A stretch of DNA of 64,000 bases from Candidatus Falkowbacteria bacterium GW2011_GWF2_43_32 (GTDB lineage: Bacteria > Patescibacteriota > Patescibacteriia > Patescibacteriales > UBA12465), in contig LCGL01000001.1 of assembly GCA_000999715.1 (NCBI GenBank), positions 3,139 through 67,138 on the forward strand. Reading direction: 5' to 3'. The position numbers and the translations under genes were made by a program. Below are positions 939-9,881 of this stretch, piece by piece; position 1 is the stretch's first letter, and every line of letters starts with the position of its first letter. The notes under the pieces were generated by a model. That model had not been told where the DNA came from and did no database searches. It was given only the letters and a program-made list of their open reading frames with translations.

Positions 939-1353
939 ATAAAAGGCTTTTTATATTTCTGATAACTTCCCGAAAGTCTTTTTTCGGCAAGGTTCTAATC
1001 TTACGTGATAATCTTTTACTACTGATAAGCCGCAGTTGTGACAAAATAATTGAATAGATACGAATTCCGTCCTGAAAATGATAATAGAACCGGTCAATCT
1101 TATTTCTACTAGTCAGTGGCAAAACCCATAAAGACCCCTCTCCAAATTTTCTTAGAATCAAAACCGGCCTTTCATATTTATCATGCTTGCCATTTTGCTC
1201 ATAGCCAATATTTACTCCTAGGCTCGCCCACCAAATTTCTCTGGTTTTAAAATATACATTGTTTCTGTTATTTAAAAAATGAATCTGAGGCTTAAGTTTT
1301 GCCCAGTTTGCAAAATCTTTCTCCTTCTGATAATCAATTAAAAAATCCTCCAT
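937..1353 (-). CDS. PemK/MazF-fold toxin-like protein (orphan, with an N-terminal extension of about 35 aa)
   Basis: 138 aa. REIWWASLGVNIGYEQNGK..ERPVLIL resembles MazF GDLIWVDFDPTKGSEQAGHRPAVVLS; the C-terminal LSQLRLISSKRLSRKIRTLPKKDFREVIRNI matches the MazF C-terminal pattern. AT-rich gene. Confidence 0.65.
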   Translation of the reverse strand: MEDFLIDYQKEKDFANWAKLKPQIHFLNNRNNVYFKTREIWWASLGVNIGYEQNGKHDKYERPVLILRKFGEGSLWVLPLTSRNKIDRFYYHFQDGIRIYSIILSQLRLISSKRLSRKIRTLPKKDFREVIRNIKSLL

Positions 1354-1462: not shown

Positions 1463-1828
1463 TCAATCCCCTTTTTTCTTGAATTTCGTCTTGGGCAATA
1501 AGCAAGCGCAGGGCTTTTTCTTGAGAATCACCCGTTGTTCGGCCAGGGTCTGCAAAAAGACGTCCTGACCGCCTTGACCGCGCGCCAGGCGTTTGTCCAG
1601 GGGAGTGCGGTGTTGATAGCCGCGGCGAACAAACTCCTTGACCAGGGCCTCGTGGCGCTCATAGAGAGCCTTGGTTTTCCCGACCCAGCGCAAAGTTTCC
1701 GGATGACGCGAATAACCGCCCCGACCGCCGTGCTTGGTCAGGATATTCCATAAACCATGCAGTTCACGGTGTTCGGCCAGCAGGTGCTGACGGCAAAGAT
1801 GTTGCGGATTAATGTCCCAGATACGCAT
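1463..1828 (-). CDS. Pyrimidine dimer DNA glycosylase / T4 endonuclease V family protein
   Basis: MRIWDINPQHLCRQHLLAEHRELHG resembles the T4 EndoV N-terminus (..DQHLMAEYRELP..). The ORF track starts at GTG 1846; ATG 1828 (MRIW) fits the family N-terminus better. GC-rich compared with its neighbours. Confidence 0.7.
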   Translation of the reverse strand: MRIWDINPQHLCRQHLLAEHRELHGLWNILTKHGGRGGYSRHPETLRWVGKTKALYERHEALVKEFVRRGYQHRTPLDKRLARGQGGQDVFLQTLAEQRVILKKKPCACLLPKTKFKKKGD

Positions 1829-1845
1829 AGCATTAGAAAAAAGCA

Positions 1846-3426
1846 CTATTTATTTTTTATCATACTCTTAAAATATTTTCGCAATTCTTGATCTACGATA
1901 AAGAGATAAGTGCCCTTCATGCCGCGCGTTAATAATGTTCTGTATATATTAATAATATATGCTTCCAACTCTTTTGGGTTATCGATTCCCTTTCTCCCAT
2001 TTACATCTTTGTAATTCTCCGGATGAATGACAAATTTTTTATTCTTCTTATCATAAGATAACTCCGGGCCAATTATTACTCCGGCATAATTAAGGTCATA
2101 ACCTTGCACCGTATGAATACAGCCAACCTCATTAATGGCATTAGCAGAATTGACCCAATTATGATTAACGCTATTCCAAAATAATTTTATTCCGTTAATC
2201 TCTATATCGTGTTTGTCGGGGTTCTTTTTCGAAACCCACGGCCAAGCGTAACCGGAAATCATCCTGCATAAACCTAATTTTCTATCCTTGCTCTTTATGT
2301 CATCGCGCATTTTCGCGATATTATCATAAATTTTGAAATCGTATTCTAAAAATTCAGACTTACCAGTGCTATTTAAATCAAATAAATTTTGTATAAAATC
2401 AATATATTTCTCACTCTCTTCGCCGACATCAATGCGTAATTGATTTTTTAATCTAAATTCCATGGCTCCTAATTCTAAGAATTTACCGCCGTTAACATCC
2501 GACGGACGAACGCTCTGACGTTCATCGTAAAAAAGTATTTGATGAGACGACGATTTAATAATCCAATCCAACTCCGTACCATTTTTCCCAAGGCCCAGCA
2601 CCTGATTATTTTTATCAAAACTGCGATAATTGGTAATATTTTTCCTTTTTCGCAATCTATGAGCTTCGTCAACCACCAATATATCATAACGACCGCCGAC
2701 CACCTCGCTCGGTCCGATGACCATGTCGGACCGCAAACCGGCAATATTTTTAAAAACTTTTTTAAGACTCCTCCGCAATGAAGTCATCGGAATCACCAAG
2801 GCGGCTTTTTTATTTTTTGTCTCTTTTAAATCACTGAACAATTTGAACAGATGCATGGCAACGATTGTTTTCCCCGTCCCCGGGCCGCCATGTACGATAA
2901 AAGTCTTAGCCAAACTATTTTTTATTTCATCAATCAACTGATTTTCAATTTTTAATTGATCTTCCGTTAACGCTTTGTAAGGCGAAAATTTAAACAAATC
3001 GCTATTCTTTATTTGCACCAAACTTTTTTCCGCCAACAACATTTTCTGCAATTCTTGCCATATAATCTCAAATTTGGCTCTGTACTTCTGCTTATCATAG
3101 TAATTATGGTCAAACAAACCATGATTACTATTTTGTATTATAAACTTACCGTCAGCCGCAAAATGTTGAATGAGCAACGACTCAATATCCAATGTCGCGG
3201 ATTTATTATATTCTTCATCAGATATAACATGTATCCTTTTTAATTTTGCTCTCTCGGGACGGTCATAATGTTGTTTACTGCGACTGTAAACATTAATCGT
3301 TTCGCCCACATAAATTTCCTGCTTGTTTTCAATAAGATAAACGACCGGCCAATTACGACCGAAAACACATGACCTAATTTGATCAAATTGATTTTTAACA
3401 AACGGAAAAGTCTGTATTTGAGACAT
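1846..3426 (-). CDS. GIY-YIG nuclease-like domain fused to a DUF2075-type (Schlafen-like) P-loop NTPase/helicase-like protein
   Basis: 526 aa. N-terminus VVYLIENKQEIYVGETINVYSRSKQH (GIY-YIG-like); Walker A GGPGTGKT; Walker B DILVVDEAHRL; C-terminal IHTVQGYDLNYAGVIIG and LTRGMKGTYLF (SF1-like motifs). Strongly AT-rich. Confidence 0.7.
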   Translation of the reverse strand: MSQIQTFPFVKNQFDQIRSCVFGRNWPVVYLIENKQEIYVGETINVYSRSKQHYDRPERAKLKRIHVISDEEYNKSATLDIESLLIQHFAADGKFIIQNSNHGLFDHNYYDKQKYRAKFEIIWQELQKMLLAEKSLVQIKNSDLFKFSPYKALTEDQLKIENQLIDEIKNSLAKTFIVHGGPGTGKTIVAMHLFKLFSDLKETKNKKAALVIPMTSLRRSLKKVFKNIAGLRSDMVIGPSEVVGGRYDILVVDEAHRLRKRKNITNYRSFDKNNQVLGLGKNGTELDWIIKSSSHQILFYDERQSVRPSDVNGGKFLELGAMEFRLKNQLRIDVGEESEKYIDFIQNLFDLNSTGKSEFLEYDFKIYDNIAKMRDDIKSKDRKLGLCRMISGYAWPWVSKKNPDKHDIEINGIKLFWNSVNHNWVNSANAINEVGCIHTVQGYDLNYAGVIIGPELSYDKKNKKFVIHPENYKDVNGRKGIDNPKELEAYIINIYRTLLTRGMKGTYLFIVDQELRKYFKSMIKNK

Positions 3427-3430
3427 GATT

Positions 3431-3778
3431 TTATAATTGATTATATTTGTAATATTTTCCCTTAGCCTTGCCGACAGGATATTTATCTGCGTTTTTTAAT
3501 ATTTTTTTCTCCAACGCATCGTAAATATCAATATCCAAATCATGAGCCATAAGTAAAACCCAACCCAAAACATCGGCTAATTCTTCCCCTATTTCGCTTC
3601 TATTATCCCTAATGTAATTTTCTAAAACAGCTCCATTTTTCCATTGGAAGTGCTCCAAAACCTCGGCCGCTTCAAGAGCTAAAGACAGGGCCATATCTTT
3701 AAGATTATGAAACTGCTCCCAATCTCTTTCATTACGGAAAGCTAACAATTTATCAGTCAAATTTTTTATTTCCGACAT
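3431..3778 (-). CDS. MazG-like nucleotide pyrophosphohydrolase (all-alpha NTP-PPase, dCTPase-like)
   Basis: LALEAAEVLEHFQW and EIGEELADVLGWVLLMAHDLDID acidic metal-binding motifs. The ORF track start at 3793 is TTG; the first ATG is at 3778. 4-nt gap to the next gene. Confidence 0.75.
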   Translation of the reverse strand: MSEIKNLTDKLLAFRNERDWEQFHNLKDMALSLALEAAEVLEHFQWKNGAVLENYIRDNRSEIGEELADVLGWVLLMAHDLDIDIYDALEKKILKNADKYPVGKAKGKYYKYNQL

Positions 3779-3871
3779 ACATTTACGAATCAAAATATTC
3801 TTAGAAACATTTTATATTTTACTTATCTTTATTTAATAATCTCATAAACTACGGCAAAAGTCAAAAATAAA

Positions 3872-3891
3872 AGCAACGGACCTCCGTTGCT
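3872..3891. terminator. Bidirectional rho-independent terminator after the adaptor gene
   Basis: AGCAACGG-ACCT-CCGTTGCT perfect 8-bp stem, with A-run on the plus side upstream and T-run downstream. Confidence 0.6.
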
Positions 3892-3925
3892 TTTTAGCTA
3901 AAATTAAATAAAAATATCTTGTCCC

Positions 3926-5821
3926 CTACTTCACAAAAGTCACCGCCAATTCTCCCGGTTGTAAGTCGCCGCTCACAATTTCCACCAAGCCTTCGTCGCC
4001 GCGCAGACCGACCGTCACCGGCACTTCCCTGACGGTCTTGCCCTCCAAGATGCGAACAAATTGTCCTTGGCCGTTCCTGTCCACAATCGCCCGTCCCGGC
4101 ACGATTAAAACATTATCGCGGCGGTCGGTGTTGATGACGATGTTGGCGGTCATCTCCGGTTTGATGAACGAAAACAAAGCGAAACTGGGATCGTCAAACG
4201 CCGGCGCACTCAAGCTCACTTTAACTTTATAATAAGGTTCCACAGAATAAACGGTACCGGTAAACTTATGGCTTTCGCCCAAGGCGTCAAAGGTAATCAC
4301 CGCTTCGTCGTTCACTTTGATTTTGGAAATGTCGGTTTCGGAAATGTCCGTCTCAATTTCAAAATTATTTTCCGTCAACAAGACAAAAACCGGTTGGGCG
4401 GCGGAAAACTGTTCGCCAACTTCATAATTCAAACCGACAATCTGACCGTCTATCGGCGCTTTCAAAATACTGTCGGCCTGCTGTTTTTTGATCAAATCCA
4501 AACTGGCCTGGGCCTGACGCACCTGCGCCTCCACCGAACTTAAATCTTCACTGCGTGCCGGCGCTTTCAGTTTCGTCAATTGCCGATCGGCCACACCCCA
4601 AGCCTCTTTGGCACTATCCATCGCCGCTTTGGCCGCGGCTATTTGCTTGTCGCCGGTCAAACGCGCCGAAGACAAAGTATTACGCGCCGTCGTCAGTCCT
4701 TCGCTGAGATTAACCTCGGCCTGCGCCAAAGCTTGCGTCAAAGAAGCGACATTGTTTCTGTAAGTCAAAAAAGCGTTATCCAAATTGTATTTGGCGGTTT
4801 GTAAAGAACTCAAACCGGTGTTGACCGCGGCAATTTGCGTATTGACGCTGGCTTTAAACGCGTCCAATTCCGTTTGCGTCATGGCCGCGGAAGAAATGGT
4901 ATATTCCAAACCGCTGTAACAACTGTTCAAAGCATTAAAAGTTTCATTAAGATAGGCGGCCACGGCGGTATTGAGAAGATTGAAATTATTTTCACTGCCC
5001 TCCAAGCGCGCCGCGCTTAAAGCGTCGTCCGCCGCGCTCTTCAAAGACTTTGCCTGATTATAATAATTTTCCGTGGCACTCTTATAGACGACATTCTTGA
5101 CGCTGAAGATGTTTTCCAAATCATCGTCTTCCAAGATGCCCCAAATTTTGTCCAAAGCGGTATTGGCGACGGAAATGTCATAACCGGCGGCGGTCAAAAA
5201 ATTGTTTTCGCCGTTATCAATGGCTTGCTGATAGCTGGTTCGGCCGTTAGCCAGATTGAGAGCGGCGATAGTCACCGCTTGTTCCAAAGCGGTCGGCGTG
5301 GCCGCGCCCGTATCTTCCAAATCGCTTAATTTCTTTTCCGCCTGACTGATCGTTTCCGCCACCGAAGCCCGAGTATTGTCATAGTCGTTGGCCGCACCTT
5401 CGTAGGCGGCCTTGGCTTGATTGGCTTGCGCCTGCAAAACCGCGATTTCCGAAGCGGTCGCTCCGCGCGTCAACTTGTCTTTATTGGCCAGCGCTAAATC
5501 AAAATTGGCTTGCGCCTCCTGTTCTTTGATCAATAATGAAGAATAGTCCAGCTCGGCCAAAATTTGATCTTTAACCACTTTATCGCCCACTCGCGCCTCT
5601 ATTTTCCCGATCTTGCCGACCTGAGGAAAATTCAATTCCAACTCCCGCAAGGGTTTCAGCGTGCCGGTTTCGGACACGGTCTGAATCAAGTCTCCTTGAA
5701 CAACGGTTGCGGTGGAATAGACCGGCTGAGGTTTTTTATTGCTCTGCCAAATAATCAAAACGACGACGACAAAAATCGCGCCGCCGATGATTAACCATCT
5801 TTTTTTATTTTTCTTGGACAT
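3926..5821 (-). CDS. HlyD/MacA-family periplasmic adaptor (membrane fusion protein) with a very long coiled-coil
   Basis: 631 aa; N-terminal TM helix, lipoyl-like GDKVVKDQILAELD, long A/Q/L-rich coiled-coil, C-terminal beta-barrel VPVTVGLRGDEGLVEIVSG. Confidence 0.8.
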   Translation of the reverse strand: MSKKNKKRWLIIGGAIFVVVVLIIWQSNKKPQPVYSTATVVQGDLIQTVSETGTLKPLRELELNFPQVGKIGKIEARVGDKVVKDQILAELDYSSLLIKEQEAQANFDLALANKDKLTRGATASEIAVLQAQANQAKAAYEGAANDYDNTRASVAETISQAEKKLSDLEDTGAATPTALEQAVTIAALNLANGRTSYQQAIDNGENNFLTAAGYDISVANTALDKIWGILEDDDLENIFSVKNVVYKSATENYYNQAKSLKSAADDALSAARLEGSENNFNLLNTAVAAYLNETFNALNSCYSGLEYTISSAAMTQTELDAFKASVNTQIAAVNTGLSSLQTAKYNLDNAFLTYRNNVASLTQALAQAEVNLSEGLTTARNTLSSARLTGDKQIAAAKAAMDSAKEAWGVADRQLTKLKAPARSEDLSSVEAQVRQAQASLDLIKKQQADSILKAPIDGQIVGLNYEVGEQFSAAQPVFVLLTENNFEIETDISETDISKIKVNDEAVITFDALGESHKFTGTVYSVEPYYKVKVSLSAPAFDDPSFALFSFIKPEMTANIVINTDRRDNVLIVPGRAIVDRNGQGQFVRILEGKTVREVPVTVGLRGDEGLVEIVSGDLQPGELAVTFVK

Positions 5822-7174: not shown

Positions 7175-9019
7175 TTATTCTTTCGTCAAAACGTTGAGCT
7201 CGTCCATTAAGGCATTCAATTCTTCCGTCCGTCCGGAGGCTTCCGCCGACTGCAATTGCTTCTGCAATTTTTTTATTTTTTTCTGTTTGCCGTATTTTTT
7301 CAATTCCGAAATGATATTGATGATTTCCGTTTTGACCTGTCCGGACTCGTAGCTATAAAAATCTTTTTCACCCAATAAAATGAGCTTATCCAATAATTTT
7401 GTGTCCTCGGCTTGGTCTGTCGCCAACGACAAACGAAAATCGGCGTAATCCAAGGAAGCAGATTTATTATAATAAATTATCAGCTGATTGTAAAACCGGA
7501 CAAAACCCGGATCGCTCAAATATTGCGGCTCCAAATTGCCGGCGCCATAGTTGATAAATTCCGGAAAGCGAATCAAAAGAGCCAATAATAATTCCGCCAA
7601 TTTTTCTTCCCGGCCGGGACGACGGACGGCGGACGGCGCGGTTTTTTCAGTTGGCGCGGCGGCGGCCGAAGCGTTGCGCGGACCTTTCTTGGCGGTCAAC
7701 AAGGCCAATTTTTCCCGCAATTCTTTCTCGTTGGTGCCGATTTCTTCATTCAATCTGGTCAGCCAATAACTGCGCTCGATGTGATTATTGACCGCCGCCA
7801 ACATCGCCAGCATTTTCTCTTCTGCCAAACGGCGATCGGCCACTTCGTCCAAATTCAAACCGGCCGTAATTTTGGTAAAATAATATTCCAACATCGGTTT
7901 GGCCTCGACGACCGCTTTTTTAAAATCCTCCGGATTGTTTTTCAAACATTCGTCCGGATCTTTGCCGACGGACAAAACGATAATTTTCAAATTGACTTCC
8001 TGCGCCAAACATTCTTTGATTCCCCGGTCGGCCGCCAGTTGTCCGGCATCGTCCATATCAAACAACAAAGCGACATTGTTGGTAAAACGTTTTAACAGCG
8101 TCACTTGTTCGACGGTCAAGGCCGTGCCGGAAGAGGCGACGGTGTTTTCAAAACCGTGTTGATGGCAGGAAATCGCGTCCATCTGCCCTTCCACCACGAT
8201 AGCCAAATCTTTTTCCCGAATGGCATTCTTGGCCTTATTCAAAGCGAACAAGGTCCGGCTTTTATCATAGACCGCGGTTTGCGGACTGTTGATGTATTTG
8301 CCCAGCTTCTCGGTCTTTTCTTTTTCCGGACTAACCCGCGCCGTAAAAGCGATCAAATTGTTGTTGACGTCGAAAATCGGAAACATAATCCGGTCGCGGA
8401 AACGATCATAATAATCGCTTCGCCCCGGAGCGGCCGTCTCGCTCGCTCGCTCTTTTTTGATAATCAAACCGGCGGAAAAAATCTCTTCATCCGTGTATTT
8501 TCGTCCGCTAAGCGGTCGCTGTTTTAAAAATTTATACAATTCGCCCCAACCGCCGGTCGGCGGACCGGGACTAACGCCCAGTTGCCAGGCGGCGATAATT
8601 TCTTCCGTCAAACCGCGTTGCAAAAGATAATTTTTGGCGTTCTGTCCGGCCGGAGTCGTCAAAATATAAGCATAATATTTTCCGGCCAATTCCAAAATGT
8701 CCAACAAACGATTGCGTTGCGAATAAGCTTCCGGATTTTCGTTTTTCAGCACCACTCCGGCCTTGGAGGCCAACAAACGCAACGCCTCCATAAATCCCAG
8801 GCCCTCTTTTTCCATGACAAAAGAAAAAACATCGCCGCCGCGCCCGCAACCGAAACAGTGCCAGATTTGTTTTTCCGGCGAAATTACGAAAGACGGTGTC
8901 TTCTCGTTATGAAAAGGACAAAGCGCCTGAAAATTAACGCCGACCGCTTTGACCGGCACGTATTCGCGGATTATTTCCACGATGTCCAACTTTGATTTTA
9001 TTTCCTCGGACTGGGACAT
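7175..9019 (-). CDS. dnaG: DNA primase DnaG
   Basis: Zinc finger [18 protein letters not shown] and TOPRIM EGQMD..DMDDAGQ. Start moved to ATG 9019 (MSQSEE) because the ORF-track extension overlaps the upstream gene. Confidence 0.9.
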
Positions 9020-9038
9020 AGCTTGATATCTTGACCAA

Positions 9039-9368
9039 TTAAATAAAAATGTCCGGCACGACCAGCGCTTGCAAGCGGGCCACTTCCCCGGCCACCACTT
9101 CGCCGTCGTATTCGGCGTTATGCCGGCTGAAACCTTCATAGCCCGGCCGTTTCTGGTCCAAATGCAAATTAAAAACCACTTGCTCGCCGCCGGCGTTATT
9201 CCGGCTTTCTTTAAAATAAATATGAAAACGCGGATAAAAATCGCGCGTCAAACGACGGGCAAAACTGCGTTCCCCGTCCTCCCGTTCCGGAATAAAAGCG
9301 TAGCCGGCGCGGCGCAGCCACATTTCCGGCGCTTCGCCCAATTGTTGTTTAGTGACGGTAAACTTCAT
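9039..9368 (-). CDS. Hypothetical protein
   Basis: 109-aa ORF with host-like composition; overlaps the gtrA-like gene by 20 nt and ends 20 nt before dnaG. No motif recognised. Confidence 0.45.
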   Translation of the reverse strand: MKFTVTKQQLGEAPEMWLRRAGYAFIPEREDGERSFARRLTRDFYPRFHIYFKESRNNAGGEQVVFNLHLDQKRPGYEGFSRHNAEYDGEVVAGEVARLQALVVPDIFI

Positions 9369-9831
9369 TTAGATCATTTCTAAAAATAAGGAATTTATAA
9401 ATTAACCAACTCCACAAACCGATGATGATGTTGACGACGATTTGCGCCGCCAGATACCAGATGAAAAATCTGACGACCAGCAAATGCATGAATACGCCGT
9501 TCAAATAAAGAACGAAAATGATATTTAAAAAATATAAAAATAACTGGTTGGTGGTCGCGGCGCGATCGTGATTGCGGAAAGTCCAGAACTTGTGAAGCAT
9601 AAAACCGATCAGGAAAGAAATAATGAAAGCCAATGTGGTGGCGCCGACTATTTCCATTTTCAGCAAACCGTGAAAAATAAACAAAAAAATCAAATCAAAG
9701 ACGGTGGTCACACTGCCGGCCAGAGCATATTTGATCAAAGAATTCTGACGACCGCAAACTCCGGCCAAACGGGGAAAACGGGCAGAAAAGAAACGATGCA
9801 GTTTAAAATAGAAATCATGCAGGAAAGACAT
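9349..9831 (-). CDS. GtrA-family membrane protein
   Basis: 160 aa, four predicted TM helices, KYALAGSVTTVFDLIFLFIF typical of the GtrA-like family. Confidence 0.65.
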   Translation of the reverse strand: MSFLHDFYFKLHRFFSARFPRLAGVCGRQNSLIKYALAGSVTTVFDLIFLFIFHGLLKMEIVGATTLAFIISFLIGFMLHKFWTFRNHDRAATTNQLFLYFLNIIFVLYLNGVFMHLLVVRFFIWYLAAQIVVNIIIGLWSWLIYKFLIFRNDLNEVYRH

Positions 9832-9881
9832 AGAACAACTTTATTTTAAAATAATTAAATCAATGACGTTTTCCGTTCTTC

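Follow-up and report, generated by a model that had tools for sequence, protein, structure and literature searches.

A conserved gene pair coding for a MazG-like pyrophosphohydrolase and a GIY-YIG/DUF2075-type helicase: a candidate defence or DNA-surveillance system

The window analysed here is a stretch of 64,000 nucleotides (nt) from Candidatus Falkowbacteria bacterium GW2011_GWF2_43_32 (contig LCGL01000001.1, positions 3,139 to 67,138 of the forward strand). Near its left end, the minus strand carries three genes (Table 1): gene 1 codes for a MazG-like nucleoside triphosphate (NTP) pyrophosphohydrolase, gene 2 for a 526-amino acid (aa) nuclease-helicase and gene 3 for a DNA glycosylase of the T4 endonuclease V (EndoV) family. 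A first-pass annotation, made from the sequence alone, had proposed that the three form a single defence or DNA-surveillance module. We found that the MazG-like and GIY-YIG/DUF2075 genes constitute a near-obligate, often translationally coupled two-gene module spread across many phyla, for which such a function is plausible, whereas the glycosylase gene is not part of it.

The gene pair and its surroundings

Homologues of the 526-aa protein, 40-71% identical to it, provided a helicase comparison set of 82 loci (2 metagenomic and 80 from species genomes). A MazG-like homologue (E-values of 1e-38 to 1e-50) directly adjoined the helicase gene in 79 of them, and two of the three exceptions were contig ends. 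The MazG-like gene was upstream of the helicase gene and on the same strand in 75 loci; the two genes overlapped by 4 nt in 25. The order was reversed in two Butyrivibrio loci, and the genes were divergent in two Clostridium loci. There was no third recurrent partner gene, since no other family was present in more than 9 of the 82 loci. A possible MazG-helicase fusion (a 'Rosetta stone'), the long frame of locus L125, was discarded because it contained no extra domain.

The pair was found in six or more phyla, its carriers being Patescibacteria, Bacteroidota, Clostridia, Bacilli (on megaplasmids), Proteobacteria, Actinobacteria and a Woesearchaeote. Databases contain more than 7,700 homologues of the 526-aa protein, mostly from Patescibacteria (the best is 77% identical), and the nuclease-helicase family occurs in at least 241 species genomes. 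On megaplasmids of the Bacillus cereus group, the pairs are annotated in RefSeq merely as 'nucleotide pyrophosphohydrolase' and 'DUF2075 domain-containing protein'. The family is very rare in viruses (4 of the 50,697 phage records of INPHARED and 2 contigs of IMG/VR), and a phage or prophage origin was rejected on that ground. An HNH endonuclease gene lies about 1 kb upstream of the pair on B. thuringiensis/B. cereus megaplasmids (L175, i.e. NC_020394.1 104617-106776, and L176); an HNH group encoded beside MazG genes has been noted previously (PMC5714182).

The glycosylase behaved differently. Gene 3 is a clear member of the Pyr_excise family (PF03013, 4.5e-25, 88.3 bits for a cut-off of 23), and T4 EndoV was its only match in the PDB at E<=10, with QHLLAEHREL aligned to QHLMAEYREL, so that AEHRE falls on the AEYRE stretch of T4 EndoV that contains Glu23. 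Co-occurrence of the three families had been put forward as a check of the trio. It failed for this gene: a Pyr_excise homologue was present in none of the 82 helicase loci and in none of 80 further loci retrieved with the MazG-like protein (about 160 loci together). The gene product matches one Candidatus Falkowbacteria protein at 100% identity and hundreds of Patescibacteria proteins at 75-86%; gene 3 shares its family with T4 EndoV but is a conserved Patescibacteria gene of housekeeping type, unlinked to the pair elsewhere.

Base composition and synteny point the same way. The GC content at third codon positions (GC3) of the glycosylase gene (0.63) is that of the backbone genes (0.60 for the ABC ATPase, 0.59 for the HlyD-like gene, 0.60 for RpoD and 0.57 for DnaG), the outliers being the MazG-like gene (0.33), the helicase gene (0.37) and PemK (0.34). 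In a related Patescibacteria genome (L091), the order Pyr_excise-DUF1294-PemK-ABC ATPase-MacB-MacB is kept and the pair is missing; compared with the window, the ABC ATPase is 84% identical, the glycosylase 80% and PemK 62%. Upstream of the glycosylase gene, where the window has the pair, L091 contains an OLD-like AAA_15/TOPRIM gene and a type I restriction-modification (R-M) system (HsdS, HsdR) (L091:37-5434), which suggests that this slot, near the MacB efflux operon, is a variable defence hotspot. Given its host-like composition and the L091 synteny, the glycosylase gene is a native backbone gene and a bystander; given the GC3 contrast and the content of the L091 slot, the pair is a foreign, horizontally acquired cassette inserted between the HlyD-like gene and the native glycosylase gene. 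The mosaic suspected from the GC contrast is therefore real but its polarity is reversed: the AT-rich pair is the foreign piece, and the GC-rich glycosylase gene could not be retained as such since its GC3 equals that of the backbone. The corrected anatomy is that of a foreign two-gene cassette in a variable hotspot beside a native UV-repair gene.

The neighbouring toxin gene, which codes for a PemK/MazF-like protein, had been taken as the sign of a defence island. PemK-like genes are found near Pyr_excise in the related Patescibacteria loci L089, L091 and L093 (twice in L093), and this recurrent association with the glycosylase means that PemK does not mark the insertion. It was also rejected as a partner: just 1 of the 82 helicase loci contains it, and in relatives it travels with the glycosylase gene. 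PemK is thus a bystander of the host backbone, outside the module. No antitoxin open reading frame (ORF) was found for it. Two oddities concern this gene: its GC3 is foreign-like in spite of its syntenic position, and a 26-nt inverted repeat (1345-1370/1381-1406, 88% complementary), which could be an operator, overlaps its start.

Predicted activities of the two proteins

Domains were called with Pfam hidden Markov models (HMMs) at curated/gathering cut-offs, and these bore out the assignments initially made from the sequence for the three proteins. Gene 2 matches PF09848 (SLFN-g3_helicase, formerly DUF2075) over aa 174-512 (positions 2-354 of the 354 of the model; 6.1e-67, 226.8 bits for a cut-off of 24). 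The GIY-YIG domain (PF01541) is just below its cut-off of 22.6 bits with the full protein (22.4 bits), but passes with the N-terminal 170 aa alone (25.0 bits) and in homologues (27-31 bits in L031, L040, L059 and L075). In an alignment of 30 homologues (A1), residues Y30, Y39, G41, R49, H53, E82 and N99/N101 of this domain are invariant, their catalytic roles being assigned by motif order and established knowledge rather than by structural superposition. The P-loop and DEAH motifs that had been spotted are indeed present and, like IHTVQGYD and TR(G), invariant in the same alignment (Walker A GPGTGKT; VVDEAHRL).

The proposed structure prediction was carried out with AlphaFold2 (AF2) and gave a model with a predicted local distance difference test score (pLDDT) of 87 and a predicted template modelling score (pTM) of 0.83. 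Its GIY-YIG domain has the order beta-beta-beta-alpha-alpha-beta-alpha. The top solved structures retrieved by Foldseek were RecD2, SLFN11 (7zel), RecD, Upf1 and Dda, with a probability of 1.00, followed by Pif1, and because of these matches the core of gene 2 is predicted to be an SF1B-type helicase. By sequence, a 30-sequence profile found no solved-structure relative of the 526-aa protein at E<=0.001.

Most relatives carry one more domain. An intact C-terminal S24 domain, of the LexA/UmuD type, is present in 48 of the 79 full-length species-genome homologues, and a C-terminal S24 was seen in 41 of the top 120 homologues. Alignment with E. coli LexA and UmuD identified the cleavage site, the serine of the G[DE]SM motif and the downstream lysine (xxK motif). 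The cleavage site is Cys-Gly in the Patescibacteria type and Ala-Gly in the Bacteroidota and Proteobacteria type. Against the PDB, the Patescibacteria type gave LexA as best match (8e-13), together with UmuD (9e-10); the Bacteroidota type was recognised by Pfam only. LexA, UmuD and phage cI have the same site and Ser-Lys dyad, but in the homologues S24 is fused to a nuclease-helicase and not to a DNA-binding domain. The window protein is devoid of it and ends directly after the helicase.

The MazG-like protein was identified by PF12643 (2.2e-17, 63.5 bits for a cut-off of 27). Its best similarity in the PDB is with an archaeal pyrophosphatase (4qgp, 1.2e-16), and it also matches mammalian DCTPP1/RS21-C6 (6sqw/2a3q, 6.9e-14), with an identical RDWEQFH stretch and aligned ExxE and EELxD motifs. 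Residues W47, E63, E66, W73, E95 and D98 of DCTPP1, which we take to be metal ligands and base-stacking tryptophans, align with W20, E36, E39, W46, E66 and D69 of the MazG-like protein. Among 28 partner sequences, R18, W20, H24, E36, E39, E66 and D69 are invariant, and all the DCTPP1-aligned metal and base-stacking positions are invariant or nearly so. On account of this conservation, the partner is very likely an active enzyme, of the dCTP or modified-dCTP type. It differs from DCTPP1 in its smaller size (115 aa), its bacterial origin and its genetic coupling to nucleases.

Relation to known systems

As first proposed for the trio, no named system provides a match. With the system models of PADLOC v2, gene 2 gave only partial matches, to Nhi (aa 130-366 only, 52.5 bits, 7.6e-15), AbiO (aa 140-380 only, 2.8e-13), PDC-S41 and PDC-S14, and genes 1 and 3 gave none; NCBIfam offered no family. 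In the searched literature no paper links DUF2075 with MazG, and reports on MazG with type IV restriction or on S24 with anti-phage activity are likewise without this pair.

The closest known proteins are Nhi (Staphylococcus epidermidis SERP2475) and Nhi-like, both experimentally shown to be anti-phage (10.1101/776245; Millman et al. 2022, 10.1101/2022.05.11.491447). Together with AbiO they resemble gene 2 in having an N-terminal nuclease followed by a DUF2075/SF1B helicase. Three differences stand out: the nuclease is PD-(D/E)xK in Nhi and GIY-YIG in gene 2; Nhi and Nhi-like act as single genes, whereas the gene 2 family has a near-obligate MazG-like partner; and most members of that family, unlike Nhi, Nhi-like and AbiO, add a LexA-like S24 domain. 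Nuclease-DUF2075 helicase defence proteins are thus a known kind, and the system is not categorically new; what is unreported is the obligate MazG-like partner and the LexA-like gate.

The group III Schlafens of humans (SLFN11, SLFN5, SLFN13 and SLFN14) belong to the same PF09848 family, SLFN11 being a top structural match. Gene 2 lacks their N-terminal tRNA-nuclease core and has a GIY-YIG DNA-nuclease domain instead. SLFN11 responds to single-stranded DNA (ssDNA) and replication stress, a response that may parallel the sensing of activated RecA (RecA*) expected of the S24 domain of the homologues. Published work on bacterial Schlafen defence is about the RNase domain and contains no reference to DUF2075, MazG or GIY-YIG.

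There are precedents for a protein with a nucleotide-hydrolase fold partnering an immune effector, as the MazG-like protein may do here. In Gabija, nucleotide hydrolysis by GajB licenses the GajA nuclease. In Kongming, KomB is a HAM1-like NTP pyrophosphatase used as a dITP sensor (PMC13434031). Neither is related in sequence to the all-alpha MazG-like protein, the folds being HAM1 for KomB and UvrD-like for GajB. A Kongming-like sensor role is conceivable for the MazG-like protein, but catalysis is lost in KomB whereas the catalytic residues are invariant here, and this conserved active site argues for an enzyme.

The reciprocal search was performed on 80 metagenomic loci taken from the MazG-like alignment, 72 of which had enough room to judge the neighbours. 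A DUF2075-type helicase gene adjoined the MazG-like gene in 33 of the 72. Eight were of the GIY-YIG type and about 22 belonged to a subfamily of about 620 aa (L093:790-2997, L102, L105, L107 and about 18 more), three of these with S24. In its helicase part, this subfamily shares 30% identity with the window protein; the N-terminus, of about 245 aa with a D...ELKQW motif, is different. We tentatively assign that N-terminus to a PD-(D/E)xK/NERD-like fold, the caution being due to the fact that only the D...ELK motif and a weak NERD match (0.024) support it. Membership of the subfamily in the Nhi, AbiO or PDC-S41 models of PADLOC was rejected, all matches being partial.

The other partners abutting the MazG-like gene were McrB-N + HNH (L155:447-1472, L172:373-1266), HNH (L099), Vsr-type and REase-like genes, and in L181 a McrB-N + HNH gene (8574-9857) overlaps the 3' end of the pair by 8 nt. 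The McrB-N + HNH neighbours in L155, L172 and L181, McrB-N being of the 5mC-reader type, hint at a general theme in which a deoxynucleoside triphosphate (dNTP) sanitiser is associated with a modification-dependent nuclease.

Defence-type genes also recur around the pair itself. The neighbours are a type III R-M system and an AAA_13 gene for the closest homologue (L001), and SocA/Panacea and Mrr for the second closest (L002). Downstream of an S24-bearing pair, L180:9040-11842 contains YgjP-like, EVE (a modified-base reader fold) and Smr genes, together with a separate gene for an S24 protein of 188 aa. Near the pair, YgjP-like genes were seen repeatedly, in at least 6 Patescibacteria loci. A census of 150 immediate neighbours recorded Fic/SoFic (5), PLD (3), NERD (3), AAA_21 (3), DUF3427 type IV enzymes (2), Mrr (2), PbeA (2) and several PDC candidates.

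Possible functions of the pair

Taken together, the data make it somewhat probable (we would say about 55%) that the pair serves restriction-like defence or DNA surveillance, with an architecture akin to that of Nhi, Nhi-like and AbiO, a function read from domains and gene context. Foreign or abnormal DNA would be the substrate on which the helicase loads or along which it translocates, the cut being made by the GIY-YIG domain. The MazG-like enzyme would hydrolyse dCTP-type nucleotides, most plausibly 5-modified ones; their removal would deprive phages with modified DNA of precursors and/or prevent such nucleotides from entering the host DNA after salvage, in which case the nuclease would spare self. 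In most relatives, activity is probably coupled to RecA-ssDNA filaments through the C-terminal self-cleaving domain, a gate that the window copy lacks.

A bolder version, which we regard as speculative and rather doubtful, is that of a widespread, undescribed immune system in which the DCTPP1-like subunit senses or destroys the non-canonical dCTP-type nucleotides of phages and S24 limits the firing of the nuclease-helicase to RecA-ssDNA filaments. It would be a bacterial counterpart of SLFN11 killing under replication stress, combined with the principle, common with the MazG + McrB-N/HNH pairs, that the sanitiser protects the host against its own modification-dependent nuclease.

Several observations weigh against a defence or surveillance role. 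The PADLOC matches are confined to generic parts of the gene 2 protein, in which no modified-base reader domain is recognisable. The same MazG clade is also found, in several loci, beside housekeeping genes (TGT, MraW, formyltransferase), and therefore is not a dedicated defence component. Many of the 150 immediate neighbours are themselves housekeeping genes, and enrichment in defence genes was judged qualitatively only. Lastly, the S24 domain, the DCTPP1-type enzyme and the SLFN11 analogy suit a role in DNA damage equally well.

The latter point leads to the strongest alternative, a non-immune DNA-damage module, which we nevertheless consider unlikely. The nuclease-helicase would process lesions or stalled forks, or kill heavily damaged cells (cf. 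SLFN11, BapE), the MazG-like enzyme would sanitise damaged dCTP-type nucleotides, as befits a relative of DCTPP1-type enzymes, which are house-cleaning enzymes, and in most relatives the LexA-like domain would tie the activity to RecA* in the SOS response. Besides the intact self-cleavage domain of 48 of the 79 homologues and the SLFN11 kinship of the helicase, some repair-type neighbours speak for it, namely the Smr and Exo_endo_phos genes of L180, the RadC and dCTP deaminase genes of L179 and, in the window, the glycosylase gene. This last link fails in the comparison loci, however, and the distribution is patchy, with relationships between phyla that resemble horizontal gene transfer. The flanks are variable and often contain R-M, OLD, Mrr or McrB-N/HNH genes, the pair is foreign in composition in the window, and one strain variant has a frameshift (see below).

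The pair could also be a selfish toxin-immunity (addiction) element kept by post-segregational killing on mobile DNA, the nuclease-helicase being the toxin and the MazG-like protein neutralising it through binding or through the removal of a nucleotide that activates it. The antitoxin-like order, in which the gene of the small protein leads and in 25 loci overlaps the next by 4 nt, the occurrence on Bacillus megaplasmids, the variable flanks and the disrupted helicase gene of the variant, which suggests a cost, are in keeping with this. We judge it improbable: an antitoxin that acts purely by binding would not need the catalytic residues that are invariant in MazG, the same clade is found by itself next to housekeeping genes, there is no DNA-binding autoregulator domain and most copies are chromosomal. 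As to the proposal of a single three-gene cassette for defence or UV repair, the 17-nt spacing and likely co-transcription of genes 2 and 3, and a MazG/DUF2075 pair lying 3 kb from a Pyr_excise gene in L093, do not save it from the co-occurrence counts, the host-like composition of the glycosylase gene, its conservation across Patescibacteria in other contexts and the L091 synteny, and we rejected it as very improbable.

If the pair does serve defence, it would be a two-component relative of Nhi with an intact dCTP-pyrophosphatase-like partner, which ties nucleotide-pool hygiene to a nuclease, and the LexA-type self-cleaving switch fused directly to the effector in most members would provide a simple readout of RecA activation for an immune nuclease. 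Through this family, the helicase half of human Schlafens is also linked to a setting of DNA targeting in prokaryotes. As it is present in cultivable Bacillus, Pedobacter, Flavobacterium, Clostridium, Comamonas and Marinobacter, these hypotheses are directly testable.

Details of the locus

The features of the locus are collected in Table 1. The ORFs confirmed the tight packing and common orientation initially reported for the three genes. The spacer is 4 nt between genes 1 and 2 (TAA-aatc-ATG). The TAG of gene 2 (1846-1848) is separated by 17 nt from the ATG of gene 3 at 1828, a spacer that becomes a 1-nt overlap if the GTG at 1846 is used. Gene 1, which had been extended to 3793, most likely starts at ATG 3778 and not at TTG 3793: its homologues begin with MSEIK and the public gene calls agree. 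From ATG 1828, gene 3 gives a protein identical to that of the database, which identifies this codon as its start. In view of the 17-nt spacing, and since no terminator was predicted between the helicase and glycosylase genes, the latter is probably co-transcribed with the pair by read-through. The search for direct repeats or att sites flanking the insertion returned short AT-rich chance matches only.

Table 1. Features of the locus (positions in the window)
Feature	Position	Strand	Basis or remark
Gene 1, MazG-like, DCTPP1/RS21-C6-like NTP pyrophosphohydrolase, 115 aa	3431..3778	-	PF12643; extendable to TTG 3793
Gene 2, GIY-YIG nuclease + predicted SF1B Schlafen-group-3/DUF2075-type helicase, 526 aa	1846..3426	-	PF09848, AF2 model
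GIY-YIG nuclease domain, gene 2 about aa 24-101	3124..3357	-	PF01541, conserved residues, model
Helicase/ATPase core, gene 2 aa 174-512; GPGTGKT, DEAH, IHTVQGYD, LLTRG	1891..2907	-	Pfam, alignment, Foldseek
Gene 3, Pyr_excise (T4 EndoV family) pyrimidine-dimer glycosylase, 121 aa	1463..1828	-	PF03013; extendable to GTG 1846
PemK/MazF-like gene, 138 aa	937..1353	-	PF02452 5.6e-10
Promoter-like site, TTGACT-17-GATTAT with TG, upstream of gene 1	3836..3864	-	consensus match only
Terminator-like hairpin ending the upstream HlyD-like gene; upstream edge of the low-GC cassette	3869..3894	-	sequence prediction

The arrangement is identical in six public contigs. In one of them (ERZ28564033, L088), from the same organism, a 16-nt frameshifting deletion (window 2508-2523) splits the helicase gene into pieces of 311 and 205 aa, as expected of a dispensable accessory gene. 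The PemK gene of the same contig is a net 45 nt shorter (window 1155-1222). These changes reflect either population-level decay of accessory genes or an assembly error.

Two further differences from public contigs were noted outside the cassette. The longest DnaG ORF (7175-9139, 654 aa) is longer by 40 codons at its 5' end than the gene as called on most public contigs (614 aa), and this N-terminal extension is probably not translated. The HlyD-like gene (3926-5821) codes for 631 aa in the window and for 640 aa in the otherwise identical contigs L083-L087, which have 27 additional in-frame nt at 4235/4236.

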